From positions 32,001 to 96,000 of the IMG/VR virus record IMGVR_UViG_3300038673_000510: a stretch of 64,000 nt of DNA, one strand, 5' to 3'. The translations under genes were made by a program, and so were the position numbers. Positions 2,205 through 22,980 of this stretch are shown here, in pieces; the first letter of the stretch is position 1, and each line of letters starts with the position of its first letter. The notes beneath the pieces are model-generated. The model was not told where the DNA came from. It made no database searches and saw only the letters and a list, made by a program, of their open reading frames with translations. Source of the DNA: a virus (Duplodnaviria > Caudoviricetes).

Positions 2205-3539
2205 ATGAATACTGAAACTTTTCCATTTGTAGATGCTATTGAAGCAGAGTTGTTACCTGCGCTTATAAATAATCGTACTATGTGGGTTGATTTAAAAGAT
2301 CATATACTTCAACAATATTGGACCAAAAAAGAGCGCGCAATTATATATAAGCTCTTTAATGTGTTCTTTGAAAGATATAAGAATTTTCCAACAAGAGCAC
2401 AAGCACTTGATATTGCAACACGCAAAAATTATGGCGACAAAGTACTTTCTGAAATTGAATTAGTTTATAATAAAGTTACTGGAGATACACTTCCAGAAGT
2501 GCAACAATATGTATATGATGAAGCGCTTAACTTTATTAGAAACAATAAAATTAAAACAGCTCTTCTTGAATCAGTTGATCTTCTTGAAAAAAGAGATTTT
2601 CTTAATATTGAAAGTAAAATGAAAGATGCTGTTAACTGGAATCCGGATATCAAGCTTGGAACAGATATTCAAGATGTTGAAACTCGTTTCGCCGCATTAG
2701 AGAATCTTTCTAATAACATTATTCCTTCTCCTTGGAAAGTACTTAATATGCTTATTGGTGGAGGATTCTATGGAAAAGAATTAGCTTTATTCGCTGGAAC
2801 AAGTTCTGTAGGAAAATCAATTGCACTTGATAATATTGCATATCACGCTTGGGATCAAGGCTATAATGTTGTTATGATTACATTGGAACTTAGCGAAGTA
2901 AGAAAAGCACAAAGAATTGATTCATCTGCTGTGCGTATTCCATTGAACGAAGTTAAAGCAAGAAAAGATGATGTTATTAAATTTTTTGAAAATAAACGTA
3001 AGAACAATAAACTTTATATAAAAGAATTTCCAACAAGCAGTGTAAGTGCTAAAAATATTCTTAATTATTTATATCAGCTTGAATTATATAATGGACTTAA
3101 AATGAGAGGAGGTGGCAAACACGGACTCAATCTTCTTATTGTAGATTATCTTGAACTGATGCTACCAAATCAGAAAAAAGCCAACGAATATGAATCACAG
3201 GGAGCGGTTGGAGCAGAACTTCGTGGAATAGGACAAGAACTTGATATTCCAGTTGTTAGTGCATGTCTTGATCCTAATACAGAAGTAATTACTTTTAAGG
3301 GAAAAATAAAATTGTCTGAATTAAAAGTTGGTGATTTTATACGTTCAAAATCACAATATAATTTTGTACAGAAAATTCAAATTAATAAAAATACAAAAAA
3401 ATATAAAATTAAAACAAAATCAGGCAAAGAAATTATTTGTAGCGCTAATCATTTATTCCCTGTAGTAAATAAAAACGAAGAATTGTCTATAAATACAGGT
3501 TTAAAAATTGGTCAACAATTATATATCAAAGAGGTGTGA
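2205..3539 (+). CDS. dnaB: gp41/DnaB-like replicative helicase, N-terminal 353 aa fused to N-part of a split intein
   Basis: Walker A GTSSVGKS, ITLELS, YIKEFPT, LIVDYLELM, ELRGIGQELDIPVVSA, then intein start CLDPNT. Confidence 0.93.
   Translation: MNTETFPFVDAIEAELLPALINNRTMWVDLKDHILQQYWTKKERAIIYKLFNVFFERYKNFPTRAQALDIATRKNYGDKVLSEIELVYNKVTGDTLPEVQQYVYDEALNFIRNNKIKTALLESVDLLEKRDFLNIESKMKDAVNWNPDIKLGTDIQDVETRFAALENLSNNIIPSPWKVLNMLIGGGFYGKELALFAGTSSVGKSIALDNIAYHAWDQGYNVVMITLELSEVRKAQRIDSSAVRIPLNEVKARKDDVIKFFENKRKNNKLYIKEFPTSSVSAKNILNYLYQLELYNGLKMRGGGKHGLNLLIVDYLELMLPNQKKANEYESQGAVGAELRGIGQELDIPVVSACLDPNTEVITFKGKIKLSELKVGDFIRSKSQYNFVQKIQINKNTKKYKIKTKSGKEIICSANHLFPVVNKNEELSINTGLKIGQQLYIKEV
3264..3536 (+). 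mobile_element. Split intein N-fragment (IntN, 91 aa), gp41-1-like
   Basis: CLDPNTEV...ELKVGDFI (block A) and KEIICSANHLFP (block B); ends GLKIGQQLYIKEV at the stop. Confidence 0.92.
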
Positions 3540-4090
3540 TAGTGAATCCTAAAGTGTATATTTGTATTGGTATGATAGGAAGTGGCAAAAGCACGTTTGC
3601 TAATAAAATGGCAATCACGTCACCAACACTTGTTGTTTCAAAAGATAAAATTCGAGAAATGTTACTCGGACAATATCGTTATGAAGAGACAGTAGAACAG
3701 TTGATAAATAAAATCACTGATGATACAATTGCAAATTGTGCGTCAGAAATTATACTTGGAATTGCTCCATATCAATCAATTATAATCGACGAATGTAATT
3801 TGACCAGAAAAGATAGAAATGCTTATATTGATTTAATTATGCGTGTAGAAGATACATTTGATAAAGAAAACTTTTTTGAAATTGAATATGTTTATTTTCC
3901 TGATTTTGATGGAGATGGTTTAACACGACGCATGAATGAACATCGTGGACTTGGCGAAGATCATTGGGAAAATGTTTGGAATTGGCAACTTAGAAAAATT
4001 GAAGCGCCTACTCACAAAGAAATGTCAGAAAACAATGTCATTAATATGATAACTATTAATTCTTTTAAAGCGAATAATTATCTTAAATAG
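3536..4090 (+). CDS. P-loop kinase (AAA_33/polynucleotide-kinase-like)
   Basis: GMIGSGKSTFA, VSKDKIREML, IIIDECNL. Confidence 0.8.
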   Translation: MIVNPKVYICIGMIGSGKSTFANKMAITSPTLVVSKDKIREMLLGQYRYEETVEQLINKITDDTIANCASEIILGIAPYQSIIIDECNLTRKDRNAYIDLIMRVEDTFDKENFFEIEYVYFPDFDGDGLTRRMNEHRGLGEDHWENVWNWQLRKIEAPTHKEMSENNVINMITINSFKANNYLK

Positions 4091-4091
4091 G

Positions 4092-4120
4092 TTGACAAAA
4101 ATAAGGATTAATACTATAAT
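4092..4120 (+). promoter_or_regulatory. sigma70-type early promoter
   Basis: TTGACA-17-TATAAT. Confidence 0.85.
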
Positions 4121-4368
4121 AATAGTATAAGGAGAATAAACAATGAATGAAATAAATACTTGGAAAGATTTTTGAGTTTTTATATTTTCCTTTAAAGGAA
4201 AAGTTTTTAAAATAAAAATTGATAACATTCTTGATGGATCTTTTAATCTTATTGTCGCGCCCTTTATATTTATTTTTAATATTTTACTTTTAATAAAAGA
4301 GATAGTGGTTTTTCCAAAACAAATTATTTGTTGTGTTTATATCTTTTATAAAGAAAAACTTATAAGGG

Positions 4369-4397
4369 TTGACAAGATTTAAAATTAATGTTATAAT
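4369..4397 (+). promoter_or_regulatory. sigma70-type early promoter
   Basis: cttataaggg-TTGACA-17-TATAAT. Confidence 0.85.
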
Positions 4398-4458
4398 AAT
4401 AGTATAAGCAAACAACAAAAGAAACTAAAAAAAACTAAAAACTACAGAGGACAAAATA

Positions 4459-4911
4459 ATGGCTAAAGCAAAAATTGACACTACTGGTTTTCTTGAAGCT
4501 CGTATTCCCGAAGGTTACAAAACTACTACTGCCGCTGCACGTGCTCTTGAGCGTTCACAGGAAAGGGCTCGCCTTTCCAAAGAAAAGCTTGCAAAGCTCG
4601 AAGCAAAAGAACTAAAAGCAAAAGAGCGTGAAGAAGCTGCTGCTAAGGTTCGTGCCGAAAAGCTTGAAAAGGCAAAAGAACGTGCTGCTATCTCCGAAGC
4701 TCGTGCCGCTGAAAAGGCTGAAAAGCTTGAAGCAAAGAAAGCTGAAAAGCTTGAAAAGGCAGCTGAAACACTTGAAGCCCTTGAACTTAAGCTTGCTAAG
4801 CAGATTGAAGCAGTTACCAAAACTCAGACTGCAATCGCTGAACTGAAGGCTATGGTTGAAGCTGCAAAGGCCGCCGAAGTTTCTGAACTTGCTGAAGTAG
4901 CAGAAGCTTGA
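4459..4911 (+). CDS. Ala/Glu/Lys-rich coiled-coil early protein
   Basis: AEKLE repeats, strongly biased codons, GAGGA SD. Confidence 0.75.
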   Translation: MAKAKIDTTGFLEARIPEGYKTTTAAARALERSQERARLSKEKLAKLEAKELKAKEREEAAAKVRAEKLEKAKERAAISEARAAEKAEKLEAKKAEKLEKAAETLEALELKLAKQIEAVTKTQTAIAELKAMVEAAKAAEVSELAEVAEA

Positions 4912-4936
4912 TCTAAAAACAATATAGAACGATAAA

Positions 4937-4961
4937 TATGGGAAGATATAATCTTCCCATA
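4937..4961 (+). terminator. hairpin/terminator
   Basis: tatgggaagat-ata-atcttcccata. Confidence 0.6.
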
Positions 4962-4984
4962 ATTTTATAATAGAGGTTACAAAT

Positions 4985-5200
4985 ATGGACGAAAAAATGA
5001 TTGCAGTTGAATCAAGTGTAATTAAACGTATTGGCTACGATGAAGAAACTCAGATTCTTGCTGTTGAATTTAAAAATAACAAGACATATTGTTATGCCGA
5101 TGTTCCTAAAGATATGTTTGACGCGTTTGTCAACGCTGGATCCATTGGTATGTTTTTCTCTGAAAACATCAAAGATGAATATGATGTTATTCCAGCTTAA
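4985..5200 (+). CDS. KTSC domain protein
   Basis: VESSVIKRIGYD...LAVEFKN..TY.Y.DVP...AGSIG.FF...IK. Confidence 0.85.
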   Translation: MDEKMIAVESSVIKRIGYDEETQILAVEFKNNKTYCYADVPKDMFDAFVNAGSIGMFFSENIKDEYDVIPA

Positions 5201-5233
5201 TTACCAATAGTCCTCTAAAATTTTTTAGTTTTT

Positions 5234-5265
5234 GAAAACTCCCACAATAAAATGTGGGAGTTTTC
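5234..5265 (+). terminator. intrinsic terminator-like hairpin
   Basis: gaaaactcccaca-ataaaa-tgtgggagttttc. Confidence 0.7.
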
Positions 5266-5300
5266 TTGTATTTAGACAATATAATATAAATAGAGGACTT

Positions 5301-5759
5301 ATGAAAAAATATATAATTTTATTTGTTATTGCTTTTGGTCTTGGATGGATTCTTTCATATAAATTTAGAACCCCAACAGAAGTTGTGATTACTAAAGATA
5401 AAATTGTTGCCAATACAATAAACAAAAATATTGGTAATATGACAGACGAAGAAAAAGTTAAAGATTTACAATGCTTTTATACTGCTACACCAGGACTTGA
5501 TATCAGACATATTCAAGACGATGAATATGATTTGACGGCTTATTTATGTGAAAGAGAATGGAGTAGAAAAGTAAAGATTGAAACTATCGCAAAACAATAT
5601 CGCAATCTTATTATATTAAATACTTTTTTTGATTCAAATTTTAAAATTGGACTAAATACTCAATATTACAAAATGTTCGGGCGTTTTGGTGTGGGTGGAG
5701 GTGTTTCATTTACACAAGGATATGCTGCAATTCAAGCTGGAGTATTAATGCAGTGGTAA
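5301..5759 (+). CDS. Membrane-anchored hypothetical protein (possibly lysis/envelope related)
   Basis: Start reassigned to ATG 5301 (GAGGA SD); N-terminal TM segment; beta-rich C-terminus ending in W. Confidence 0.55.
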   Translation: MKKYIILFVIAFGLGWILSYKFRTPTEVVITKDKIVANTINKNIGNMTDEEKVKDLQCFYTATPGLDIRHIQDDEYDLTAYLCEREWSRKVKIETIAKQYRNLIILNTFFDSNFKIGLNTQYYKMFGRFGVGGGVSFTQGYAAIQAGVLMQW

Positions 5760-5780
5760 AAAATAACAAAGGAAAACACA

Positions 5781-6449
5781 ATGAGAATTATTTCTAAATA
5801 TCGTGATTATTATGATACTATAATGTCTTTTGGAATTGATAATGAATGTGTTTATTTACGTAATCCAGAACCAATTTCGTTAAATAAAAATAACGATCCA
5901 TTTTCTTCGTATATACATCATAGAGATAAAAAAGATCACACTAAGGGTGATTTGTATGATATTGGTGTTTATACAAATTATAGTCAAAACCGTAAAGAAG
6001 AAACATTGATAATTGGCTTTTGTGGAAAAATATATCCTTGTTTTATTGACACTACTGCTCATTATGAACCAACCGAAGAACAAATTTATGATGCAAAAAA
6101 TAATCGTTGGGGTCTCAATCGTAATTATGTAGATTTTTTCAATAAAAATTGGGATGATTTTAATAAAATATTTACAGATTATATGGTTCCAATTTTTACT
6201 ATTCGTGGGCCTAATGGTTCAGATGGCTGGAAAACTCTAACATTAAACGATGATCTTAAACAATTTAATTTTGTTACACAGAAAGATCCTTATACTGCTT
6301 TTCAAGATATATATCAGTATCTTTCTGGTGTGCTTGGTATTAACAATAAGCCAATGATAAAAATATCAGATAAAGATATGGCCATTAAAAAAGGATTTTC
6401 ACATAAATATGCTTTTCGCAAAGAACCTACTAAGAGGAAAATTTCATGA
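5781..6449 (+). CDS. conserved phage hypothetical protein
   Basis: MRIISKYRDYYD...IGFCGKIYP...DPYTAFQDI, recognisable as a common phage family. Confidence 0.6.
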   Translation: MRIISKYRDYYDTIMSFGIDNECVYLRNPEPISLNKNNDPFSSYIHHRDKKDHTKGDLYDIGVYTNYSQNRKEETLIIGFCGKIYPCFIDTTAHYEPTEEQIYDAKNNRWGLNRNYVDFFNKNWDDFNKIFTDYMVPIFTIRGPNGSDGWKTLTLNDDLKQFNFVTQKDPYTAFQDIYQYLSGVLGINNKPMIKISDKDMAIKKGFSHKYAFRKEPTKRKIS

Positions 6450-7120
6450 ATTTAAAAGAATATATTGTTGAGTGGCTGACTGCTTCAGAGCGACAACGTG
6501 CTGCACAAAATGGACAAACAAATCTTAAACAAGATATTAAATTGGATGATGTACGTATTCCACCATCGCGTCGAGGTTATAATTTTCCCGAATGGTTAAG
6601 AAATTATAAATGGCCTATTGAAGGAGAATTCAAAGACAGTCAAACTATATATACTAAAAAAGTATTAAAACAAATAAACGCAAAAGACAATATAAGAACT
6701 AACTCAATTATTAGTAAGGGTAGTAGAATTGTTATATTTCCGGATGGAACCTTTTTAAGTGGCGATCCATCACGATTAATACACGTGGATTTAATTATTT
6801 ATGCAATGTATAAAGGCAAAATTTCTTTAGATGAAAATCAGTATAATACATTTTTTAAAAATCCTAAATCATTAAATAATTTTTTAATGATAATGGGGAG
6901 TCCATATTATAATGAATATTATGGATTAAGTGAAAGTTATAGTATTAATTCGTTTTATAAAAAAATTAACACAGCTGAAACACAAGCACAAATAGCAAAA
7001 TATGCTAAAATGGCATACCAATATGGATTGAAGATACTTCCATTACATTATAGAAAAATACAGCAAATGAATGAAGAACAGTTAGAAAGAGCATACAAGA
7101 AATTTGCGTTTTGGGTATAA
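6446..7120 (+). CDS. NGQTNL paralog family protein (putative internal head protein)
   Basis: ERQRAAQNGQTNL, PEW, IH, SESY shared with 39565, 44906, 45996. Confidence 0.7.
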   Translation: MNLKEYIVEWLTASERQRAAQNGQTNLKQDIKLDDVRIPPSRRGYNFPEWLRNYKWPIEGEFKDSQTIYTKKVLKQINAKDNIRTNSIISKGSRIVIFPDGTFLSGDPSRLIHVDLIIYAMYKGKISLDENQYNTFFKNPKSLNNFLMIMGSPYYNEYYGLSESYSINSFYKKINTAETQAQIAKYAKMAYQYGLKILPLHYRKIQQMNEEQLERAYKKFAFWV

Positions 7121-7155
7121 TAAATAAAAAAGGATAAAATATAAAATATAAAATT

Positions 7156-7602
7156 ATGACAGAAAGTATTAAAGAAGCTAAGATTAATGAATTTTCTAAT
7201 GATGCTACTATGCTTATGGCAAAATCATATGAACGAATGATAGTATCACAAGGAAATTTTTCAAACATTGCTGTATCTCGGGCGATTGAAATAGCAAAAA
7301 TGCAAAACATTAATTTGGATAGTTCACACATCATTGGCGTTAGTTTTGCCCCACAATTTGCTGTTGTAGCAGTACTTTATAAACCAGTAATACTCGCTCC
7401 TGGTGATGATGGAAATCCAAAACAAGTAAATATTCCGGTGCCAGTAGAATGTTTATTCCCAACAAACGATTCATGGAAAGATATTTATAATAAAATTCTT
7501 GAAGATGCAACTGAGGCAATCAAAAAAGATAAAGAAGCTGGAAAACTTGAAGAAGCTTTTGGTAATTTTGAGAACTTAGGACCAGATTCAGTAGAGGGTT
7601 AA
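7156..7602 (+). CDS. hypothetical protein
   Basis: ORF track. Confidence 0.6.
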   Translation: MTESIKEAKINEFSNDATMLMAKSYERMIVSQGNFSNIAVSRAIEIAKMQNINLDSSHIIGVSFAPQFAVVAVLYKPVILAPGDDGNPKQVNIPVPVECLFPTNDSWKDIYNKILEDATEAIKKDKEAGKLEEAFGNFENLGPDSVEG

Positions 7603-7956
7603 TTGAAAGTATCTATAACAGGTTCAAGAGAATATAATGATTATTTTTCTTTTAAGTCATGTTTAAACGATTATATAAAAGCAAATAAAATTTTTGTTAC
7701 AGAAATTATTTCTGGTGGAGCTAAAGGTACAGACACAATGGCTCACACATTTGCAATAGAATATAATGTTCCTATTAAATTGCATTTACCTGAATGGGAT
7801 AAGTATGGTAAATCAGCTGGATTTATAAGAAACAAATTAATACTTGATGATGCAGAAATGAATTTTATTTTCTGGAATAATGTTAGTAAGGGAGCACAAT
7901 GGAATATAAGTTATTGTTTAAAACACAATAGACCATTTAAAGTTTTCAATATATAA
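7603..7956 (+). CDS. SLOG-superfamily (YspA/DUF2493-like) protein
   Basis: ITGSREY, ISGGAKGTD, WDKYGKSAGFIRN. Confidence 0.85.
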   Translation: MKVSITGSREYNDYFSFKSCLNDYIKANKIFVTEIISGGAKGTDTMAHTFAIEYNVPIKLHLPEWDKYGKSAGFIRNKLILDDAEMNFIFWNNVSKGAQWNISYCLKHNRPFKVFNI

Positions 7957-7963
7957 GGTAAAA

Positions 7964-8557
7964 ATGTTTGACAAATTATTAAATAAATTGTATCAGACGT
8001 TAGATACACCAGAAAGAAAGGAACGATTAAGATTAAAAGTAAAAGAAGCGTTAGAAGAAGCTTATAATAATGGATATAAAACAGCCGAAGAAATTGGACA
8101 AGAAGCAATAAAAGCAAAAGAAAACGATTTAATTGATGAGTATAGTATTTTGTTAGCTACAAAAAATTCCGAGTTGATACAAGCTCGTAAGATGATAAAA
8201 GATTATCAAGATCAACTTAGAAACGCTAAGCGAGCATATAAATCATATTATCATGATGCTGTTGCAAATAAAAAACTTATTGCTGAGGTTGCTGTACAAA
8301 TTCAAAGATTGTTTGATGCATCAGGAGATATTTATAAAAGCTTTATTTCAATTCAAGATAGTGCTCAAGATCATTTTGATTTGATGCTGAAAAAAGATCC
8401 ATTAAATAGAAACTTACTTGGTATTACACAAATTCCAGATAATGGAATTGAAAATAAAACTATATTATCGGAGCAAGAACTAAACGAAACATTGGAAGCC
8501 ATAAATAATATGTCACCAAAATCGTTAAAAGAAAAAAACAATGAAAATAACAATTAA
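7964..8557 (+). CDS. coiled-coil hypothetical protein
   Basis: ORF track. Confidence 0.6.
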   Translation: MFDKLLNKLYQTLDTPERKERLRLKVKEALEEAYNNGYKTAEEIGQEAIKAKENDLIDEYSILLATKNSELIQARKMIKDYQDQLRNAKRAYKSYYHDAVANKKLIAEVAVQIQRLFDASGDIYKSFISIQDSAQDHFDLMLKKDPLNRNLLGITQIPDNGIENKTILSEQELNETLEAINNMSPKSLKEKNNENNN

Positions 8558-8735
8558 CACTGAACCGAACGATAATCTTTCTATTTATTCAGAAAACAAA
8601 CAACTTGGAATAATAAATGTCGATACTTTTCTATCTATATTAGATTCTTTTCAAGTGGATGCATATGAAGATGGAGAGGTTAAATTTAGTGTAAATGAGG
8701 TAAAACTATTCAATAAATTAAAGTGAGGTAATTAT

Positions 8736-8960
8736 ATGAGTAGAACGTTCCGAGCAAAAGATTCTTATTACACATGTGAAGAATCATTTAAGGCAACAAT
8801 GGATAAAAAAAGATGGTCCAAACCTCCAAAGTGGTTTAAAAGAATGCGTCGACAAGTAGAACGAGCGCGCACAAAGGATGCAATGCGACATATTCTTGAT
8901 GATATAGAAACAACAAATATTCCTATTATTAAACATTCAGATATATTTAATTGGAATTAA
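8736..8960 (+). CDS. small basic hypothetical protein
   Basis: GAGGT SD; MSRTFR...PPKWFKR. Confidence 0.55.
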   Translation: MSRTFRAKDSYYTCEESFKATMDKKRWSKPPKWFKRMRRQVERARTKDAMRHILDDIETTNIPIIKHSDIFNWN

Positions 8961-9049
8961 AAAAAACAAAAAATTTGCGAAATATATAATAAATAAAAAC
9001 CAACTTATATCTCTTTAGGTTGGTTTTTTACTTTACAGTGGAGAAAAGA

Positions 9050-9673
9050 ATGACGGACAAAAAAGAAGTAGGTATGAAGTTTGATGGAGAAAAAGAAAGA
9101 TGGGATCTTTTACCTATGGATGCTTTAAATGAAGTCGCTAAGGTTCTTACATTCGGTGCAAAAAAATATAAAGCTTGGAATTGGGAACATGTTGATGACG
9201 CGGAAAACAGATATTATGCAGCAGCAGAAAGACACCTGCGTGATATTCAAAACGCAAAACGGGGTTTAGAAGGTGCTTCTGAATTTGATTCAGAGTCTAA
9301 TTTGCTTCATGCTGCACATGCTGCATGCTGCTGTTTATTTGTAGCTTCATTAGCTCTTCAACGTAAACAAAAAGAAAAAGAAATTGAAAATCAGAAAGAT
9401 CCAATATTTGTTCCACATTTTGATTTTGAACTTATGAAGTATGGTGAAACTAATTTAAATAAATCTGTTTGTGCTGAAGAAGCTATTAAAAAAGCTGCAA
9501 CACAATTTAATAAATTTTGCGCAGAAATTATAGTAGATCAAGATGGAAATCTTGTTGGCACAAAACAATTAAAAAATGAAGATTTTAAAAAAATCTCAAG
9601 TAGTACAAAAAAGCATTGGCATAATGCAATAACAAAATATTTTACAAGGAAAAAAGAAGATGCAAATAACTAA
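9050..9673 (+). CDS. dATP/dGTP diphosphohydrolase domain protein (DUF5664-like)
   Basis: KFDGEKERWDLLP..AL.EVAKVLTFGAKKY..WNW, AAERH, DSESNLLHAAHAAC. Confidence 0.85.
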   Translation: MTDKKEVGMKFDGEKERWDLLPMDALNEVAKVLTFGAKKYKAWNWEHVDDAENRYYAAAERHLRDIQNAKRGLEGASEFDSESNLLHAAHAACCCLFVASLALQRKQKEKEIENQKDPIFVPHFDFELMKYGETNLNKSVCAEEAIKKAATQFNKFCAEIIVDQDGNLVGTKQLKNEDFKKISSSTKKHWHNAITKYFTRKKEDANN

Positions 9674-10412
9674 AATATACATGAATCAAGGAATGCGTAT
9701 TACACGTATTATGACTTCAGGTTGGGAAAATGCAATCCTTGGCATGAGACTTCCAATGAACTCAGAACATTTATCTGATAGCACTTATAATATTCCTCTG
9801 GGATCAGATAAAGATCAATTTATATTACTTGATTCTGGGTATGATATTGGACCAAAAGATCAAGATCTTATAATCAGACTTGCAAAAGCAGGAACAGATC
9901 ATAGTAAGGTTCTCAGAATGATTCATGTGTCAGCTCTTGTAAAAATGCCTATGACATTTTTTAAACATTATGATACTTATAAGGTTGCAACAACCGCAAT
10001 CTCAAGAAGTACGATGCACAAAGGAGTTGGTAAAGAATTACTTACTAAAGATGATTTTTATGTTGAAGAATGGAACAATGAACAAGATATTATGTTAGAA
10101 ACACTTAATAAGTTACAAATTCAGCACAATAATGCAACAGACCAAACTGAAAAAAGAAAAATTTGGCGTAGATTAATAGACGCTCTTCCAATGTGTTATT
10201 GTCAGGAGAGGCTGATAGATTTAGATTATCAGACACTTCTTGCTATTCTTGGTTCCAGGTATCAAGTAGAAAAATTATCACCGGAATGGAATTTCTTTTG
10301 TGAAGCGTTTCTCAAAGACTGTCCTATGCTTGAAAGACTTTATGAAGCAACAAAGCATAAAAGAACAATGACCACAGAAGAGTTTACTGCGATATCAAAG
10401 GGAAATAAATAA
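9660..10412 (+). CDS. divergent ThyX-like (flavin-dependent thymidylate synthase fold) protein
   Basis: GTDHSKVLRMIHV, DTYKVATTAISRSTMHK, LPMCY, DYQTL; canonical RHRxxS motif absent. Confidence 0.55.
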   Translation: MQITKIYMNQGMRITRIMTSGWENAILGMRLPMNSEHLSDSTYNIPLGSDKDQFILLDSGYDIGPKDQDLIIRLAKAGTDHSKVLRMIHVSALVKMPMTFFKHYDTYKVATTAISRSTMHKGVGKELLTKDDFYVEEWNNEQDIMLETLNKLQIQHNNATDQTEKRKIWRRLIDALPMCYCQERLIDLDYQTLLAILGSRYQVEKLSPEWNFFCEAFLKDCPMLERLYEATKHKRTMTTEEFTAISKGNK

Positions 10413-10759
10413 TGAAAAAATTGCATGTATATGTAGCAAGTCCATATTCAAATCCAGATCCAATAAAAATTGAAGCTAATGTACATAGATCTATGCTGGC
10501 TTGTGAACAGTTAATGGTAGCAGGCTTTGTTCCATTTCTTACATTAGCTTCTCATTATTATGATGTTAATCATTATAGTCACACTTGGGAAGAATGGATG
10601 GAATTTGATATTGCTTGGTTGTCAAAATGTGATGCATTGCTTCGTCTTGAAGGTGCTTCTAAGGGCGCAGATAGAGAAGTAGATTATGCAGTAAAAAATA
10701 ACATTCCAGTTTTTTACACAATTGAATCATTAAAAATGTATGCTGAAAATTTAAAATAA
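10412..10759 (+). CDS. nucleoside 2-deoxyribosyltransferase-like (DUF1937/DUF4406-type) protein
   Basis: VYVASPYS, WLSKCDALLRL, SKGADREVDYA. Confidence 0.8.
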   Translation: MKKLHVYVASPYSNPDPIKIEANVHRSMLACEQLMVAGFVPFLTLASHYYDVNHYSHTWEEWMEFDIAWLSKCDALLRLEGASKGADREVDYAVKNNIPVFYTIESLKMYAENLK

Positions 10760-11007
10760 TATATTTATTTCCTTCATTAAATATTAATATATAATGCTTA
10801 ATGGAGGTATTATGATACAAGAAAAACTAAATATTATTTTGATTCTTAGAAAATATATTAGCGATGCTATAATGATGCATAAAGATTTAAAACGATTTTG
10901 TAAATATTGTAATGCTAAAGAACAATATAGATGTGAAACATGGACAATAGAACATAAAGCTAAATGTCCAATATTAGAAGCAAAAAAATTATTGAGTAGA
11001 TTAGAAA

Positions 11008-11619: not shown

Positions 11620-11622
11620 GGA

Positions 11623-11651
11623 TTGACAAGAATTAAAATAAAGATTATAAT
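11623..11651 (+). promoter_or_regulatory. sigma70-type early promoter
   Basis: cttatgagga-TTGACA-17-TATAAT. Confidence 0.85.
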
Positions 11652-11685
11652 AATATCATAAAGGAAAACACAAAAGAAAATAAAA

Positions 11686-13624
11686 ATGAAAGCAATCATA
11701 AAAATAAAAAAGAATGAATCTAATTTCTGCTGTCTGACTTGTCCAGCAAATCATGATGCAGCGGTTGGAAGTATAGGGTGTATGATGTGTAATTTTTATG
11801 ATAAAAAGGCTTCAACTCAAATATTTGTGCATTGTACATCTCCGGTTGCTGTTGTATTTTTACAAAGTTTAAGAGGATAATTATGATTTGTAAAGAATGC
11901 GGAAATGAAATAAAGATGGTTAATATTCCTTTTGTTGATAATAATATTCGTGCCAATGGAATATGTCTTGAATGTGAAAGGTGGCTTAATCTGTTTGATG
12001 AGATTCAGATTAATAAGGGTCATTTTACCATGAATGGAAAATATTGGATAATTGATCCGAAGTCAAAAAACGAAGTTTATTCTTCAAATAAATTTTGTTT
12101 CAAAAAAGATGGCGTCGATGAAATTCTTTATTCCAATACTATAGTTTGTGTCGGTAAAATTCCAGCAAGATTTTCGAATCTTTTTCCAACAGATTGTGGG
12201 CGATCAGTAGGTGAGTAATACTAAAAGATTAGTAATAATATTATTATTTAGCAAAAGGTGAGTTTTTATGACAGATGAAGAAATTGTAATTCTGAAACGA
12301 TTAAGCAAAAAACTTAAACGTAAAGCTTCAATTGAAATGAAGAAAGTGAAAAATGACATAACTCATTATGAAGGTATGTGCAAAGGTATGTGGATTGGCT
12401 ACAACGAATCTGCTACTGAAATTGATAAAATACTAAGAGAAATAAAATGACGATAAAGGTAACAAAAACAATAGAAACACCTAAAATTGTTTTCAAGCAT
12501 TAAAACTAAAAAAAAATATTTATTCATTTTGAGAGGAAAAATGGAACAGTCAGAAGTAATTGCTAAATTGATTCTTACAGCAAGTGTGTTTGTAAGTATT
12601 GGTGGTCATACAGTGATGTGGCTCATGAATAAAACGCCGTTTTCAAAATTTCTTGGTAGTCTTCTTGGTGTTGGTTTTAATGCCGCATTACTTTATTATG
12701 CTAAAGTTTTTAACTTTATTAAGTTCTGAGGCAATGTATGACAAAGTGTATTTGCGGATATGTAGATAATGGTGGATTTAATGAAGAGCCGTTTATAGAA
12801 ACAGGTTGGGTTGTCGGAAAGAATTATGATCGTATCCCAGTTGTGGTTTGTCCTAAGTGTGGAACATTAAAAGCAAACGTGAGGAATTAAAATGATTATT
12901 GATAATACGGAAATTTTTGCTCGTTTTTCTTATTATACAGATTTTAAGGCTCGTGCATTGTATTTTATTGATGAGTATAATAATCCGTATTGTGTTATGA
13001 CAGTAAATATTCCTGATGTTATACTTAAAGATGATGAACTCCTTATAAAAACTTGGGGAGAATGTGAAGATATGTATGATTCACTTGTTAAAATGGGCGC
13101 ATTAATACCGACCGGAGATGTTGTGCCAACCGGTTTTGTGTGCGCTGCAATTTGCAAATATAACCCGGAGATATTAATGAAATGAAAAAAATCATATTAT
13201 TTTTGCTTATATTTGCAATTGCAGTGGGAACGGTATCTGCACAAAAGCCTAAAGTGAAAATAACATTGAAATGTTATTACATTGGCAACGATCAATATCG
13301 TTGGTATGTTCACAGTAGATATTCTCTTCCATATCTTAAAGACGGAAAGAATGTTGCATGTTCAAAAAAGGATATTAAATGATAGAATATAAAAGCTTAG
13401 AGCATGGAAGTACAGTTGTAGTAGTAAACAATAAAGTAGAATTAAATAAAGTTTTAAACTGGTGTAAAGAAAAAGATAAAATAATAATTGATTGGTTTAA
13501 TAAAGTTGAAAAATTTCCATTGTGTATTTCTGTTGCAAGCGATATTGTCGGATGGACAGACAAAATGGATAGAGCTTTATATTATAAACCATTTGAAGAT
13601 TTTTTAAAGGATATTGGTGAATAA
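11686..13624 (+). other. run of small early hypothetical ORFs (several Cys-rich or membrane-anchored)
   Basis: Tightly packed ORFs near 11686, 11883, 12268, 12541, 12892, 13182 and 13379. Confidence 0.6.
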
Positions 13625-14673
13625 TGGAATTTAAATTGCAAGATTTTCTTGAATTGACAAAGATTAAAGAAGAAATTAGAATGAAAGAAGAAATTGTTAA
13701 TGGTGTTCGCGTTGGAATTTTTTCTTATATGGTTTCTATGCCCGATACTTTTGATTCGGATCTCGCAAAAGAATGTCGTGGTATTACATTTAATCTTGAA
13801 ACTGGTGAATGTATCTGCCGTCCATTCCCTAAATTTTTTAACGTCAATGAAAAACCAGGTTGGCTTGAACATGAATTAGATTGGAAAAATATTACTTATG
13901 TTGGTGAAAAGTTTGATGGTTCAATGATTACTCCAGTTCTTGTTAATGGAAAAGTTTTTCTGAAAACCAAAAAAAGTTTTTATTCTGATGTTGCAATTCA
14001 GGCAACTCAATATATGAATAAGAACAATATTGTGTTTGACTTCAAGAAAGATGAAACATTACTTCTGGAATATATCGGACCTGATAATAAAATCGTTATT
14101 GATTATCCACAAGAAAAATTTGTATCTCTTGCTGTACGTAATATCAATTCTGGTAAAATTACCTTCACAACTAATATTTTTGATGAATGTAAAAATTTAA
14201 TTCAAGATGGATTGTTTATTGAATATGTTAGAACATTAGTTGGTAAAGAAGGTTTTGTATGTTATGATGCAACTAATGATAAACTATTCAAAGTAAAATC
14301 TCAATGGTATATGGATCTTCATAGATTGATTGATAAAATTTCAGGACGTGATGTTTTAGTAATGATCCTGGATGAAACTATTGACGACTATTCGTCTGCA
14401 ATTGCTGAAAACAAACGTAAATATAATGCAATCGCAGAACTTACAAAAGAAGTTAATCAGTTTAAACTTCAGTTAATCAAACGAGTTGAAAAAACATATA
14501 TGGAAAATTGTGCACTATCTAAAAAAGAATTTGCACAACACATATTTGCTAATGGTCATAAAGATATTAGCGGAATATTGTTTGCATTATATGACCAGAA
14601 AGATTATATGATTCAGATCAATGGTTTTGTAAACAATGTTTATAGAGAAAAATTAAGTGGGGTTATTTTTTAA
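13624..14673 (+). CDS. T4 Rnl1-like RNA ligase
   Basis: ECRGITF, RPFPKFFNVNE, motif I EKFDGS, EGFV, FKVKSQWY. Confidence 0.92.
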   Translation: MEFKLQDFLELTKIKEEIRMKEEIVNGVRVGIFSYMVSMPDTFDSDLAKECRGITFNLETGECICRPFPKFFNVNEKPGWLEHELDWKNITYVGEKFDGSMITPVLVNGKVFLKTKKSFYSDVAIQATQYMNKNNIVFDFKKDETLLLEYIGPDNKIVIDYPQEKFVSLAVRNINSGKITFTTNIFDECKNLIQDGLFIEYVRTLVGKEGFVCYDATNDKLFKVKSQWYMDLHRLIDKISGRDVLVMILDETIDDYSSAIAENKRKYNAIAELTKEVNQFKLQLIKRVEKTYMENCALSKKEFAQHIFANGHKDISGILFALYDQKDYMIQINGFVNNVYREKLSGVIF

Positions 14674-15202
14674 CCCCACTATTTTTATGAGACATGATAT
14701 GAAGAAAGTAACTATTGATTTTAATTGTAATGAAACTGTTGAAATTACATTAAACGAAAATGGCGCAAAAATTTATAATGATTATTATAAACAATTTGAT
14801 ACTTATTTTAATGAAAATCGACGTCATAAAAATATTCAGCCAGGAGTGCGCAGTATGCAATTATGGGATGTGATGAATATTTTTGGGCCACATTTAGGTC
14901 TTGGTAAAACTGCGCCATTTGAAAAATTTGAAATTAGATTTACAGTTGAGGTACCCGATGAGAGTTAAAGCACTCATTCAATCTGGAGAAATTCCGGCGG
15001 GATCAATTATTGACGTTGAAAAAGAAGTATATGGAAATTTTTTTGGAATTTGGCGTTCACACTTCGGAACATTCAATGTAAGTATTTCTATTAAAGATTG
15101 TGAAATTATTAAAGAATAGTGGATTGATATATGGCCCAATGATTGAAGTAATTAATGATATAAATTTTATTGAAATAAAGTAAGTAGGTAGGTAAGTAAT
15201 TA

Positions 15203-16114
15203 ATGATTAAAGTAATTTTTGCGCGTGGGCTTATTGCGTCAGGAAAATCCACGTGGGCCAAAGAATTTGTAGCAAATAATCAGAATTATAAAAGAGTATC
15301 TCGTGATGATTTTCGTCATATGACCAACTCTTATATTTATACTGATGAAAATGAAAAAATGGTAACTAAGTTATGGGATGTTACTGTTGCCAGTCTTATT
15401 GCACAAGGATACAATCTTGTTATTGATGAGCAGAATCTTAATAGTAAGTATCTTGAAGATCATAAGAGTTTTATTAAAACTGTTTGTGACCATGAAAACA
15501 AGACTGTAGAATTTTTAGTTAAAGATTTTCCAATTACTCTCGGCGAAGCAATTACCAGAGATAAACAAAGAGATTTTTCAATTGGTGAAAAAATTATAAA
15601 AAAGACTTGGCATAAGTATGAACTTACTTTGCGTAAGATGCTTGAAGATTCACGCAAAACAAAAGTTTATCCTTTTGATCCTAATCTTCCATATTGTATA
15701 ATTTGCGATATTGATGGGACTCTTAGTCGTCCAAATGACCGAGGAATTTTTGATTATTCAAAAGTTGATAATGATTATGTTATAGAACAAGTTGCTTTTA
15801 TGATTAAGAAACTTAAAGAAAGTACAAATATGATTATTGTCATGATGTCTGGTCGTGAGGAACAAGCTCGTGAAAAAACTATTAAATGGTTTGAACAAGC
15901 TAAGATTCCTTATGACTTCTTTTACATGAGAAAAGACAAGGATTCTCGTGCTGATAATATTGTTAAACTTGAATTGTTTGATAATCATATTAGAAACAAA
16001 TTTAATCCTTTCTGTGTATTCGACGATAGAATCCAGGTTCTTAAAATGTGGCAAGATCTTGGAATTTTTACTTTTGATGTTCGTCAAGACGCAGAAGGAA
16101 AAAATATTTTTTAA
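15203..16114 (+). CDS. pseT: polynucleotide 5'-kinase/3'-phosphatase (T4 PseT-like)
   Basis: GLIASGKSTWA, SRDDFR kinase domain; HAD DIDGTL, SGR, FDDR phosphatase domain. Confidence 0.93.
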   Translation: MIKVIFARGLIASGKSTWAKEFVANNQNYKRVSRDDFRHMTNSYIYTDENEKMVTKLWDVTVASLIAQGYNLVIDEQNLNSKYLEDHKSFIKTVCDHENKTVEFLVKDFPITLGEAITRDKQRDFSIGEKIIKKTWHKYELTLRKMLEDSRKTKVYPFDPNLPYCIICDIDGTLSRPNDRGIFDYSKVDNDYVIEQVAFMIKKLKESTNMIIVMMSGREEQAREKTIKWFEQAKIPYDFFYMRKDKDSRADNIVKLELFDNHIRNKFNPFCVFDDRIQVLKMWQDLGIFTFDVRQDAEGKNIF

Positions 16115-16295
16115 GGATAATATAATACATGAAACAAAACGTTCATATTCATCGGATGATTCTTTTAACCCTATAGGATTGAGCATAGGTGGTGGAGATT
16201 TTTCTTCATCGCCTATTTCTTTTTTTAACAATGATAATGATTTTTCTGGTGGAGGTGGTGATTTTGGAGGAGGTGGCGCATCTGGAGATTGGTAA
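16115..16295 (+). pseudogene. start-less remnant ending FSGGGGDFGGGGASGDW
   Basis: Characteristic Gly-rich C-terminus with no in-frame ATG outside pseT. Confidence 0.4.
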
Positions 16296-16890
16296 ACAAA
16301 ATAAATGTATCCATGAATAGAAGGACATCAGTACTTTCCATTCTCGTTATCAGCTTAAATGTATTAAGTGTAGTAAAACGAAATTAGATAAGGATAAAAT
16401 AAAAAATGAAAAATAAAGTTTTGATTGTGTTTTTAATTATTGTTGCAATATTTATAACTTCGTTGATGATAAAAATTGAAAAAACAAACAAGCAAATTAA
16501 TAGCCTTAATAAAAATATACAATTTTTAAACAATGAAGTTGAAGCAATTAATAGACGTTTAAGTCTTGATTCAACGGTAGATTAATATGGAAAAAATTGA
16601 ATGCACATGTAATAAAGGGCTCATAGAAAAATTGCATACAATGAAACTTGGAGATGGAAAAGAAATCTCAGTAAAAACACAAAAAGTATGTTCAGTTTGT
16701 CATGGAACCGGTTTTATAGAAAAATAAAACAACTTATTTGCGTTTTAAATATAATAATTAAAAGGAGAAAATTTATGTCTATGTGTGATGCAACATTTGC
16801 GAGAAAATCAATAGAATTAAATAAAGAACGTTTTCATATAGATGATTGTTTAATAAATGTTTTAATTAATACCATTGAGGTTGTTGATAA

Positions 16891-17175
16891 ATGAAAGAAA
16901 AATTTTTTATACAATATGGAATGAATGCACCAGTAGCAATAGAAAAAGTTAAAACATTTAAACGCACCGGCGGAAATATAGAATTTTTTTTTGACAGTGG
17001 AGTTGTGACATGGCAATTTGGTACTGTTGCTGAAGCTGAATATGCGCATAATATTTTAATAAAAACATATGTTTATAAAATGGACACATTACTTCAAAAA
17101 GAAGCAAAAGAAACAATGAAAAAACTTAAAGTAGAAGATAGTAATGAAAATGAGCCAAAACCCGATATGCTTTAA
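16891..17175 (+). CDS. hypothetical protein
   Basis: ORF track. Confidence 0.55.
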   Translation: MKEKFFIQYGMNAPVAIEKVKTFKRTGGNIEFFFDSGVVTWQFGTVAEAEYAHNILIKTYVYKMDTLLQKEAKETMKKLKVEDSNENEPKPDML

Positions 17176-17187
17176 TTCTTATAAGGG

Positions 17188-17216
17188 TTGACAAAAAAAA
17201 GACAAAATGTTATAAT
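17188..17216 (+). promoter_or_regulatory. sigma70-type early promoter
   Basis: cttataaggg-TTGACA-17-TATAAT. Confidence 0.85.
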
Positions 17217-17254
17217 ATTAACAACGAACAAACAAAAGTACAAAGGGAAAAAGT

Positions 17255-17574
17255 ATGCAGAAAGATGTTATTACTCTCGTAACAAAACACATGGATAAAA
17301 ATCATGCTGTTGAGTTATGGAGTGATGACAAACAAAAAGTGAATAGGCTGGAAATAATTTTCAATCATATTCATTTTATGAAAACAAATTACCTATATAA
17401 TCCCGAAACATTATTTGAAAAAAAATAAATAGTTTTATTCCTTTAAATTTGTTTCTACAGAGCAGATCAGATACTTTTATTATGTTAGAAACATGGTCAG
17501 ATAAAGAAGATTTAATGCTTGAGTTTGCTGAGTTTTGCGCAAAAGAATTAAACCTTTCATTTAATATTATATAA
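17255..17574 (+). pseudogene. frameshifted ORF (A8 run at 17418-17425)
   Basis: MQKDVITL...LFEKK stops; one extra A gives a 106-aa ORF filling the gap to TAA at 17574. Confidence 0.5.
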
Positions 17575-17586
17575 AGGAAAATACAA

Positions 17587-17843
17587 ATGCACGGAAAAAT
17601 TATTAAAATTCATAATCATGAAATTCTTAAACAAAAAAGACATAAGATTTTTGATTATATAAGTGTTGATATGGTGATGGCGCAGTTCAAATGGTTGTTA
17701 TGACTATTGATGCATACAATCTTTATATGTTTAAGGATTCTCTACTTGCAAAGGGTATGTTATACGATGACATCGAAAAACTTTGCAATCTTCAAATTGA
17801 AGTCTGTCAAAATGATGAAGCTCGTAATTTTTGTGAGGGTTAA
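17587..17843 (+). pseudogene. frameshifted ORF (one base missing near 17670)
   Basis: MHGKIIKI...SVD continues in another frame as YGDGAVQMVVMT...FCEG*. Confidence 0.4.
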
Positions 17844-17844
17844 T

Positions 17845-18042
17845 ATGGAAAAGAAAATATTTGAAGTATCATATGAAGGTTGGGATGGTGGTTCTGAAAT
17901 GTGTACTCACTACCTCCTTGTTGAAGCTGAAAACGAAGAACAAGCGAGAGACAAAGCTAATCTTTATTTGATAGATACTGTTACTCCTAAGCACATGTTC
18001 CGTTCAGTCGATAGAGTTTGGGAAGCCAAAATAATAAGATAA
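17845..18042 (+). CDS. hypothetical protein
   Basis: GAGGG SD; MEKKIFEVSYEGW..LLVEAENEEQA. Confidence 0.55.
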   Translation: MEKKIFEVSYEGWDGGSEMCTHYLLVEAENEEQARDKANLYLIDTVTPKHMFRSVDRVWEAKIIR

Positions 18043-18488
18043 AAACATGGAAACTGAAAATGTTGATAAAGAAGAATTACTTCAATTAGCATATAAAAGC
18101 CTTTGTGAATATTGTCAACGTAGTTATCCTTGTGCGGTTTGTAGGTACAAGAGCATAAAAGAATATGTAAAAAAAAATTAAATTGGAAATAAAAATATGA
18201 AAAATATAATTCCAGCTTGGAAGCTTCATAAGACTCGTACTATGATTCAACAGAAAAGTAAAGTACAAACAAATCGCAGAGTTTATAAACGCGATAAAAA
18301 ATCATGGAAGAACATGGTATGAAAGCCGAAGTAAAACATATTGACAATTTGTTTTCAAATATCATAGATTATATAACTATCAACACTGTACTTGATGATG
18401 GTGATTATGATTTTATTGAAAACAGATTAAAAGCGGTATCTGCTGCAATTACAAGAAAAAAAATTGATATAAAAAGAGGAAAATCAGT

Positions 18489-19229
18489 TTGAATAACTTC
18501 AAGTCAAAAGATGGCATTACAATTGCAGAGGTTCGCGCTGAACTTAAAAAGCAGAATGCTGTAATTGAAAGAGATAAGGCATACACTTGTCGTAGATGGA
18601 TTGTTACAGTTGATAAAAATACTTCTTTTCATATTCGTTATATTCCCACTATGGGAGAAATGCTGAACGAACTAAAAACTAAAAAAGTAATGGCTTTCTG
18701 TAAAGAACATGAAGCCAATTCAGATGGTAAAACCACAAAAGTACGTAAAGAAAAGAAGCTCAGAACAAAAGAAGTGAGAATGCTGAAAAAGCAGAAAAAA
18801 GTAAATAATCCCAGAATTCAAGAACTTCAGGAACAGCATATAAATCTTGTTCTTGAAAGAATGCGTCTGACAAATACCAAAGAAAGAAAAGCAGAACTTG
18901 CTATTCAATTAAAAGCTCTTCGTGCAGAAATTATTGAGCTTGGTGGTGATCCCACTATAGGTAATTCAAATGAAAAAACTTCTGTATCACGTGAAGATAT
19001 GGAAGAAGCTCGTAAACGTGGTATAGCAAAGCGCGCCGAAAAGAAAGACAAAAAAACTGCTGGTAAAAATGCTTCACCTCGTCTTAAGAAAACTGCATCT
19101 AAAAAAGCAAAAGATGAAGACTATGAAGACGAAATTGAAGAAGATGAATTCGATCTTGAAGAAGAAGAAGAAGAAATGAAACCAGCTAAAAAAGCAAAAA
19201 CTAAAGCTGTTAAAAAGGGTAAAAAATAA
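18489..19229 (+). CDS. putative nucleic-acid-binding protein with acidic and Lys/Ala-rich tail; carries a domain shared with 19229 and 47209
   Basis: VIERDKAYTCRRWIVT...IRYIPTMGEM; tail EDEIEEDEFDLEEEEEEMKPAKKAKTKAVKKGKK. Confidence 0.65.
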   Translation: MNNFKSKDGITIAEVRAELKKQNAVIERDKAYTCRRWIVTVDKNTSFHIRYIPTMGEMLNELKTKKVMAFCKEHEANSDGKTTKVRKEKKLRTKEVRMLKKQKKVNNPRIQELQEQHINLVLERMRLTNTKERKAELAIQLKALRAEIIELGGDPTIGNSNEKTSVSREDMEEARKRGIAKRAEKKDKKTAGKNASPRLKKTASKKAKDEDYEDEIEEDEFDLEEEEEEMKPAKKAKTKAVKKGKK

Positions 19230-19714
19230 TGGGACTTTGTAAGGGTATTTACACAAGACGACAGCACGGTGAAAATATCACTGTTCCAGATTTTATGGAA
19301 GGGCATCATATGAAAGACGATAAAAAAACCATGGTTCCCGATGGCGCAGTAATTACAAAAATCCCAGAGGGTGTTCTTGATATTACTGAAATTGATAAAC
19401 CGGAAAAGAAAAAAAAAGTAAACGTCAAGAAGCAAGAACAGACAATTAAGCAGCTTGAAAAAATCATTAAACGCAAAAGTCGCGGTGCAATGATTAAAAC
19501 AGCTTCAATCAAAGAAGTTCAAAAAGCACTTGGATCGCGGTATGTTATTGAAAGAGATAGATCATATAAATGTCGTAGATGGATTGTGACATCAAAAGAC
19601 AAAGAATGGTTTATCCGTTTTAATGATCCATTATGTATAGCGGTGGATTATATTAATAAACATGGTGCAGCAAAATTTCTTAAAGAGTTTTCGTTAAAAA
19701 GCAAATACAATTAA
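19229..19714 (+). CDS. paralog of the 18489 domain
   Basis: VIERDRSYKCRRWIVT. Confidence 0.65.
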   Translation: MGLCKGIYTRRQHGENITVPDFMEGHHMKDDKKTMVPDGAVITKIPEGVLDITEIDKPEKKKKVNVKKQEQTIKQLEKIIKRKSRGAMIKTASIKEVQKALGSRYVIERDRSYKCRRWIVTSKDKEWFIRFNDPLCIAVDYINKHGAAKFLKEFSLKSKYN

Positions 19715-19900
19715 GAGGTTAATATGCTTGGATGTGGAGATTATGCAATAACTAAATTATGGAAAGGATATACTGAGCCTCAAGTAATTGAATATGCAGA
19801 ATCTTATGAAGAATGTCTTAAATATATTTCCACTCAAAAACATAGCATTGCTTTTGATTGGGAAATAATGAAATTTCAATAAAAAACAAGAGGTAATAGT

Positions 19901-20149
19901 ATGGACGCAGTAACCGAAATTTCTTCAATCGTAGTTGATGAACTTGAATTTTTTCCTGGAGATTATTTTCAGGGAAGAGATAGAGAACGAAAAAATTTCA
20001 CGCTCAAATATGAAAGAATAACAAACGGTATGGCAATCATCAAGCAGATGGGCAGAAATACTACACATTTTTTTCGAATACCTCTTGCTGATGCTGGCGA
20101 TCAGCTTGGTATGATGTTCAGAAAAATTGAACGTGTATATAAATTTTAA
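19901..20149 (+). CDS. hypothetical protein
   Basis: GAGGT SD. Confidence 0.6.
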   Translation: MDAVTEISSIVVDELEFFPGDYFQGRDRERKNFTLKYERITNGMAIIKQMGRNTTHFFRIPLADAGDQLGMMFRKIERVYKF

Positions 20150-20155
20150 TGTTTG

Positions 20156-20181
20156 AGCTGGAGGATGAAAATTCTCCAGCT
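20156..20181 (+). terminator. hairpin immediately upstream of the IntC-helicase gene
   Basis: agctggag-gatgaaaatt-ctccagct; no U-tract. Confidence 0.45.
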
Positions 20182-20200
20182 ATTGTAATTTGGAGATAAT

Positions 20201-20308
20201 ATGATAGATGAAATAATTAGCATTGAAGAAGTGGAATCAGGGGACACAATTGATATAGAAGTTTCGGGAGATCATTTGTTTTTTGCAAATGATATTTTAA
20301 CACATAAT
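20201..20308 (+). mobile_element. Split intein C-fragment (IntC)
   Basis: Blocks F/G DIEVSGDHLFFAN..THN followed by Ser+1. Confidence 0.92.
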
Positions 20309-20557
20309 TCGCAGTTAAGTCGTGGTAATCTTCTTGTAAGTATTGAGGATTTGACTGAAGGCTTTATGGCGGATAGTTGGAGAAAAGTAAGTATATCGGA
20401 CTTGATTGTTGGTATGGCTGCAACTCCTGAAGAACGAGCTGCAAATAGAATAAATTTTAAAACACTCAAATCTCGAAATGGAATTAAAGACGAAATTTTT
20501 CCATTGAAGATTGAATACGAAAAAATGACTATTTCAGATTTAGCTAAAAAAGGATAA
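20201..20557 (+). CDS. dnaB: Split intein C-part (36 aa) fused to C-terminal 82 aa of the gp41/DnaB helicase
   Basis: TIDIEVSGDHLFFANDILTHN|SQLSRG...MADSWRKVSISDLIVGM...LKSRNG; GGAG SD. Confidence 0.93.
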   Translation: MIDEIISIEEVESGDTIDIEVSGDHLFFANDILTHNSQLSRGNLLVSIEDLTEGFMADSWRKVSISDLIVGMAATPEERAANRINFKTLKSRNGIKDEIFPLKIEYEKMTISDLAKKG

Positions 20558-22932: not shown

Positions 22933-22951
22933 GAAAAAAATCACATAAGGG

Positions 22952-22980
22952 TTGACAATAATGCAAATATAAGATATAAT
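22952..22980 (+). promoter_or_regulatory. sigma70-type early promoter
   Basis: cataaggg-TTGACA-17-TATAAT. Confidence 0.85.

Follow-up and report, generated by a model that had tools for sequence, protein, structure and literature searches.

In the fractured-gene loci described by Dassa et al. 2009, an essential replication gene is encoded on one strand as an N part fused to the N-terminal fragment of an intein (IntN), a free-standing GIY-YIG or Vsr-like endonuclease gene, and the C-terminal intein fragment (IntC) fused to the C part. The halves are adjacent in all of these loci (PMC2677866), with spacers of 27–51 nucleotides (nt) and one gene between them; at the gp41-1 locus, which encodes a cyanophage-like gp41 helicase, they lie ~1 kb apart, and at gp41-7, which represents step III of the authors' gene-breaking model (endonuclease lost), they still adjoin. 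Here we analyze a 64,000-nt stretch of IMG/VR virus record IMGVR_UViG_3300038673_000510 (positions 32,001–96,000; hereafter the window), in which the gene for a gp41/DnaB replicative helicase is divided between two open reading frames (ORFs), gp41N and gp41C, each carrying one half of a gp41-1-class split intein. As in the fractured-gene loci, an essential replication gene is broken on one strand, but the halves are 16.7 kb apart and the break holds ~45 unrelated genes with their own promoters, and we found no endonuclease gene among the 26 ORFs scanned there.

Parallels in arrangement are the step IV cases, cyanobacterial dnaE-n/dnaE-c and Nanoarchaeum equitans PolB, where an essential replication enzyme is likewise encoded apart and joined by inferred trans-splicing. 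Those cases are found in cellular genomes with no surviving intermediates, whereas the window belongs to a phage, keeps its halves on one strand in ancestral order, and has intermediates in sister lineages. We consider it likely that the gene pair is a genuine, naturally split gp41/DnaB replicative helicase of an uncultured T4-like phage of ~30% GC, whose two products would be joined by trans-splicing. Its dislocation fits the predicted last step of the published model (Dassa et al. 2009) within one phage lineage, and is not a new mechanism. As far as we have found, a gp41-1-class split intein at this new insertion point and in the predicted dislocated arrangement is apparently undocumented in phages: a literature search of partial coverage turned up no phage reported to have dislocated halves of a split intein, and such coverage makes this weak evidence of novelty.

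The helicase halves and their intein

The two genes lie on the same strand in a parent record of 116,958 bp that is estimated to be 63% complete. The gp41N ORF (2205–3539, + strand) encodes 444 amino acids (aa), a 353-aa helicase part followed by a 91-aa IntN, and the gp41C ORF (20201–20557, + strand) encodes 118 aa, a 36-aa IntC followed by an 82-aa helicase C part. From stop to start, the gap between them (3540–20200) measures 16,661 bp. Their features are as follows.

2205–3263, + strand: helicase N-extein, 353 aa, gp41/DnaB-like with a RecA-type ATPase core (Pfam DnaB_C), ending ...DIPVVSA
3264–3539, + strand: IntN and TGA stop, 91 aa from Cys1 (TGT, 3264–3266), with block B motif CSANH
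20192–20195, + strand: GGAG Shine-Dalgarno, 5 nt 5′ of the gp41C ATG, read from the sequence
20201–20308, + strand: IntC, 36 aa, ending ...NDILTHN (phmmer match to 6QAZ)
20309–20557, + strand: helicase C-extein and stop, 82 aa from the +1 Ser (SQLSRG...), containing the conserved ...LKSRNG

The conserved Arg of ...LKSRNG is presumably the arginine finger known from the DnaB family, with the ATPase core lying in the N-extein.

Both halves resemble the gp41-1 intein in sequence and in chemistry. In phmmer searches of PDB sequences, IntN matches residues 5–92 (E 6.4e-16) and IntC residues 93–128 (E 1.3e-8) of the gp41-1 intein 6QAZ, which places the split at 6QAZ 92|93, the canonical endonuclease-insertion position (IntN ~88–91 aa, IntC ~36–37 aa). 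Every splicing residue that we checked is present (Cys1, His of the block B motif CSANH, the C-terminal His-Asn, and Ser at +1). In 12 split relatives the first two of these are conserved, and H35, N36, and S37 are invariant across 20 relatives. The net charge of IntN is +9 and that of IntC −10, an opposite polarity that is the pattern of split inteins assembling by electrostatic capture (PMC11923092). The window's intein and gp41-1 (PMC2677866; 6QAZ) are alike in enzyme family, fold family by sequence, split point, residue chemistry, and basic-N/acidic-C charge, while their identity, read by eye from alignments, is about two-thirds for IntC and ~45% for IntN.

Alignment to intein-less relatives points to a precise rejoining of the exteins. 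When the N half is used as a protein query, the intein-less helicases of 431–448 aa that it retrieves align with its extein part alone. In 9/9 intein-less orthologues the N-extein aligns up to a given residue and the C-extein from the very next one (e.g., 362|363 in P0079 and 350|351 in P0087), with identities of 45–60% for the N-extein and 47–61% for the C-extein. The joined exteins align end to end with these nine intact orthologues, and joining would complete the DnaB_C ATPase domain. Because the exteins align to adjoining orthologue residues, the spliced product would be a helicase of 435 aa and normal make-up, in which no residue is lost or repeated. In the route that we propose, each polypeptide would be translated from its own gene, the two genes lying on one strand at a distance of 16.7 kb. 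IntN, which is basic, and IntC, which is acidic, would bind one another and together adopt a HINT fold of the gp41-1 type. Ligation of ...PVVSA to SQLSR... by Cys1, His of block B, the terminal His-Asn, and Ser at +1 would then yield the 435-aa helicase.

An earlier note on this DNA, made from its letters alone, had proposed much of this layout. Its ORF coordinates, DIPVVSA/NDILTHN/SQLSRG junction layout, and 16,661-bp separation prove correct at every coordinate; its assignment of the intein halves to the gp41-1 class is borne out by the phmmer matches of both to 6QAZ; and the VVSA|SQLSR junction and 435-aa product that it rebuilt are supported by the extein alignments. In the profile search that it had proposed, the N half aligned with Pfam DnaB_C over profile positions 7–176 of 255 (E 7.5e-16), and both halves matched Intein_splicing below the cut-off. 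The note had also named an intact helicase elsewhere in the genome as a finding that would speak against a split enzyme; the 117-kb record, at 63% completeness, contains a single DnaB_C match, the one described here. Among the deposited phage genomes searched there is no cultured close relative: with the C half as tblastn query, none of 50,697 records gave a match at E 1e-5, and the N half retrieved distant gp41 genes alone (≤28.6% identity).

Conservation of this kind also bears on whether the halves still splice. They could be real genes that have ceased to do so, either forming a non-covalent two-subunit helicase or decaying as relics beside a helicase supplied by the host or by the unsampled part of the phage genome. 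In phages, an enzyme whose gene is interrupted by an endonuclease gene may assemble unspliced, as in Aeh1 NrdA (cited in PMC2677866 and PMC3045599), splicing is predicted here from sequence, and the record is 63% complete. We nevertheless judge loss of splicing unlikely, since every splicing residue checked (Cys1, block B His, His-Asn, and +1 Ser) is kept in lineages only 60–75% identical, IntN is conserved about as well as the extein (56% vs. 62% identity with the related locus L112), the 117 kb hold one DnaB_C match, and both ORFs are intact in every assembly.

Insertion point and spacing in related loci

Trans-splicing between the window's halves, our preferred reading, would occur at a position in the helicase distinct from that of gp41-1. 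The gp41-1 to gp41-7 inteins are integrated at position 356 of P-SSM2 gp41, where the C-extein begins SSSDV, and gp41-1-type loci (L063) are likewise cut before SSSDV. The cut of the window clade, ...SA|SQLSR, lies 9–10 residues upstream of this point in the extein alignment. Other loci are cut after SQ(L/V)NR (L006 and L044), a site five residues beyond the window clade's cut, or before S(M/F)G(V/L)PA (L007). Helicase motif H4 thus has at least four sites, all inside a stretch of ~25 residues, that bear gp41-1-like inteins. We saw the ...SA|SQLSR-type site only in the window (3240–3266 and 20300–20330) and in L026, L027, L029, and L112. As the cut site differs from that of gp41-1 to gp41-7, the window carries a homologous intein at another site and not an allele of gp41-1.

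To place the separation in context, we compared 85 loci, comprising 80 with a gp41-1-like IntC from a profile scan of IMG/VR and five added ones. The N half lies upstream in 81/85, including three contiguous inteins and 78 loci with a gap of 20–2,144 bp. Across these 81 the median N-to-C gap is 806 bp, usually leaving room for an endonuclease gene. Two of the other four have too little upstream DNA, and two (L029 and L104) have no N half in the 6–10 kb upstream. The earlier note had called the distance in the window unusual, and the survey agrees (16,661 bp vs. 0–2,144 bp in 81/85 related loci).

L104 (10007–10603; IMGVR_UViG_3300026521_000003, 290 kb) encodes a gp41-1-like IntC fused to a helicase-like C part, with no N half within 10 kb upstream and no IntN, DnaB_C, or related N half in the record, which is 87% complete. 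This half could be an orphan or could mark another dislocated gene; we did not count it as a second example because its N half was undetected in a record of that completeness. Contiguous, unsplit mini-inteins homologous to gp41-1 lie inside intact gp41 at L044:2588–4342, L085:2561–4351, and L102:444–2213 and presumably represent the pre-fracture state. At L007 (9983–10396), IntC ends ...DILTKN, with Lys replacing the usual penultimate His.

The wide spacing recurs in other assemblies and in a diverged lineage, as expected if the window is contiguous in the way that the earlier note assumed. Exact-sequence look-ups recovered three further contigs that carry both halves and are 99.9–100% identical to the window, with start-to-start spacings of 17,996 bp (a 194-kb JGI contig and Logan SRR24332389_52) and 18,008 bp (SRR24332388_3903); both ORFs are intact in each. 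These contigs are repeat assemblies of one phage and add no biologically independent case; independent support comes instead from diverged relatives. In L112 (N half 60% identical, another sample) a single 11.5-kb contig contains the two halves, separated by 7,425 bp, and its intervening block is collinear with that of the window, starting with an AAA_33 gene and ending with homologues of the window's 246-, 161-, and 82-aa ORFs (tblastx). In L116 (63% identical) an AAA_33 gene lies directly 3′ of IntN. In L029 (C half 75% identical) there is no N half in at least 6.2 kb upstream of gp41C, and this upstream region is collinear with window positions 11.9–20.1 kb (tblastx). The GC content of the gap is 30.2%, like its flanks, and remains uniform at ~30% across the joins.

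A chimeric join or collapsed repeat could in principle create such a separation between halves that are truly adjacent, and all of the sequences are short-read metagenome assemblies, those of the same phage perhaps sharing a sampling source. Identical spacing from two pipelines (JGI and Logan) and several runs, the collinear 7.4-kb block on one contig in the 60%-identical L112 from another sample, the matching flanking genes of L029 and L116, and the uniform GC across the joins all argue against an assembly artefact, which we regard as extremely improbable.

Contents and transcription signals of the gap

The gap is occupied by early accessory genes on the strand of the helicase halves. We scanned 26 of its ORFs with Pfam and PHROGs (all 19 of at least 100 aa and seven shorter ones), and promoters were identified by consensus match.

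3540–20200, + strand: gap block, 16,661 bp, ~45 same-strand ORFs (gene calls on contigs of the same phage)
3536/3542–4090, + strand: AAA_33 kinase-like gene abutting the IntN stop (Pfam/PHROGs)
4092–4120, + strand: perfect sigma-70 consensus early promoter
4369–4397, + strand: perfect sigma-70 consensus early promoter
4985–5200, + strand: KTSC (Pfam/PHROGs)
7603–7956, + strand: YAcAr/SLOG (Pfam/PHROGs)
9020–9673, + strand: dATP/dGTP diphosphohydrolase (Pfam/PHROGs)
10412–10759, + strand: DUF7768 (Pfam/PHROGs)
11008–11619, + strand: dCMP deaminase (Pfam/PHROGs)
11623–11651, + strand: perfect sigma-70 consensus early promoter
13624–14673, + strand: RNA ligase 1 (Pfam/PHROGs)
15203–16114, + strand: PNKP (Pfam/PHROGs)
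17188–17216, + strand: perfect sigma-70 consensus early promoter
18489–20149, + strand: gp41C-proximal end of the gap, with four ORFs of 246, 161, 52, and 82 aa
20156–20181, + strand: perfect 11-bp hairpin ending 10 nt 5′ of the gp41C Shine-Dalgarno

The absence of an endonuclease gene next to the halves, which the earlier note had remarked on, holds in every search: Pfam and PHROGs gave no homing endonuclease among the 26 scanned ORFs, with ~20 tiny ORFs unscanned, and searching the gap by tblastn for the endonuclease-like ORFs of relatives likewise revealed no trace (E > 0.1). At the 3′ end of the gap, the 246-, 161-, and 82-aa ORFs have counterparts immediately before gp41C in the wide-gap relatives L029 and L112, as judged from tblastx collinearity and the gene-size pattern on contig ERZ1426827. 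RNA ligase 1 and polynucleotide kinase-phosphatase (PNKP) stand near each other (13624–16114) and form a T4-type tRNA-repair pair.

Candidate transcription signals lie between the halves. A perfect TTGACA-N17-TATAAT promoter occurs five times in the window, where chance predicts 0.12 occurrences, and four of the five are intergenic and inside the gap. Alignment of the five promoter regions (4040–4120, 4317–4397, 11571–11651, 17136–17216, and 22900–22980) reveals that all share an extended upstream CTTATAAGGG element, and the common extended upstream element reads CTTATAAGGGTTGACAA; this extended consensus is probably the early-promoter signature of the phage. Terminator-like hairpins occur at several points in the gap. 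With four promoters and these hairpins lying between the halves, separate transcription of gp41N and gp41C is plausible. The hairpin at 20156–20181 folds at −17.9 kcal/mol (z −3.98, with 0/200 shuffles folding as well) and was also picked up in the scan for terminator-like hairpins. It lacks conservation in relatives, and could act as a partial terminator or in stabilizing the RNA.

Three further ideas about these signals were rejected. The hairpin at 20156–20181 as a relic of the upstream hairpin of an endonuclease cassette found no counterpart in L026 or L027, and in L112 its equivalent is weak. A late-promoter motif, TATAAATA, is not enriched (23 matches vs. 17 expected). PeSL cassettes, known from T4-like phages and consisting of a composite early promoter joined to a stem-loop at cassette borders, do not describe the gap, where the hairpins lie hundreds of bases from the promoters.

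Proposed origin of the break and its growth

Gene order in relatives suggests how a helicase gene could come to be divided so widely. In the intein-less L115 and P0084 contig, gp41 is followed directly by baseplate genes, and P0084 is nested in the window's own clade (support 100/99). Two relatives share the insertion point of the window (...SA|SQxxR) and have narrow gaps. L027 still has the fractured-gene layout, its halves separated by a 321-aa ORF that runs into the start of gp41C, while L026 has a 118-bp gap without a gene, the equivalent in this clade of the state of gp41-7. The L027 ORF, itself without a Pfam match, has homologues among the ORFs that separate the halves at other loci; of these, that of L006 weakly matches a restriction-endonuclease-like Pfam domain (E 5.6e-4), making the L027 ORF a candidate Vsr-like homing endonuclease. 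The comparison of gene order in related phages that the earlier note had called for accordingly turns up intact, candidate-endonuclease-bearing, 118-bp, and 7,425-bp stages.

Both outer flanks of the window match the order of its intein-less and narrow-gap relatives. Upstream, a primase gene and a small minus-strand ORF precede gp41N; downstream, gp41C is followed by baseplate genes, TerL, and portal. The ancestral order of these flanks indicates that the block accumulated inside the break. The C half, or the block together with the N half, might instead have been moved from elsewhere in the genome by rearrangement; hyperplastic regions of T4-like phages do shuffle cassettes (PMC2839356 and PMC4122927), and the helicase tree does not resolve the order of events. 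We consider such a transfer very unlikely, as both outer flanks keep the ancestral order that insertion between the halves predicts.

Growth of the gap by insertion could have proceeded as follows. Starting from an intact gp41 with baseplate genes directly after it, a mini-intein in helicase motif H4 would have been broken by a free-standing Vsr-like homing endonuclease gene, and the endonuclease then lost. Because the halves need not adjoin for trans-splicing, the break would have tolerated the insertion of early-gene cassettes with strong sigma-70-type promoters, the gap growing to 7.4 kb in one lineage (L112) and to 16.7 kb in the phage of the window. We infer that this sequence of events corresponds to steps II–IV of the gene-breaking model of Dassa et al. 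2009, with all stages visible among the relatives that have this insertion point.

Several points weigh against a trans-spliced helicase whose break grew in this way. Trans-splicing of the halves is deduced from conservation, and their placement in separate transcription units, plausible as it is, from consensus promoters and hairpins. The contigs of the same phage probably come from one study. A second helicase may lie in the remaining ~40% of the genome, which amounts to ~77 kb of the 194-kb contig. For the endonuclease ORFs of relatives, the only Pfam match is a weak one to a nuclease-like domain (E 5.6e-4). Finally, the helicase tree needs at least four changes between split and intact states and leaves the order of events within the window clade unsettled.

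If the order above is right, one clade offers a near-complete series, from intact through split with endonuclease, split without endonuclease, and 7.4 kb to 16.7 kb. Such a series is comparative evidence for the evolution of genes in pieces such as cyanobacterial dnaE, for which the last step has so far been inferred only from end states in cellular genomes. It also suggests that trans-splicing, once in place, can open the inside of an essential gene to accessory genes. The pair itself is a divergent relative of gp41-1 with a native Ser at +1 and different flanking exteins (VVSA/SQLSR). As a candidate fast split intein it is a sensible choice, and it may be orthogonal to gp41-1.

One possibility is that the break has become a stable landing site for cassettes, a new hyperplastic region, and that the halves are expressed from different early or middle transcription units, making trans-splicing a timer or AND-gate for the start of DNA replication. 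This idea is tentative and, in our estimation, doubtful; if true, the phage would exploit the separation of the halves to control the onset of its own DNA replication.

Contiguous inteins occur elsewhere in the same phage. The large terminase (28078–31056, − strand; 992 aa), identified by its TerL ATPase domain, contains one with a LAGLIDADG endonuclease domain, and its L026 orthologue (621 aa) has no intein. The anaerobic ribonucleotide reductase NrdD (L002:1–3414, at ~99.2–102.6 kb of the phage's own genome and outside the window) also carries a contiguous intein with LAGLIDADG (Intein_splicing E 6.9e-16). Together with that of gp41, the phage has at least three inteins, and only the one in gp41 is split.

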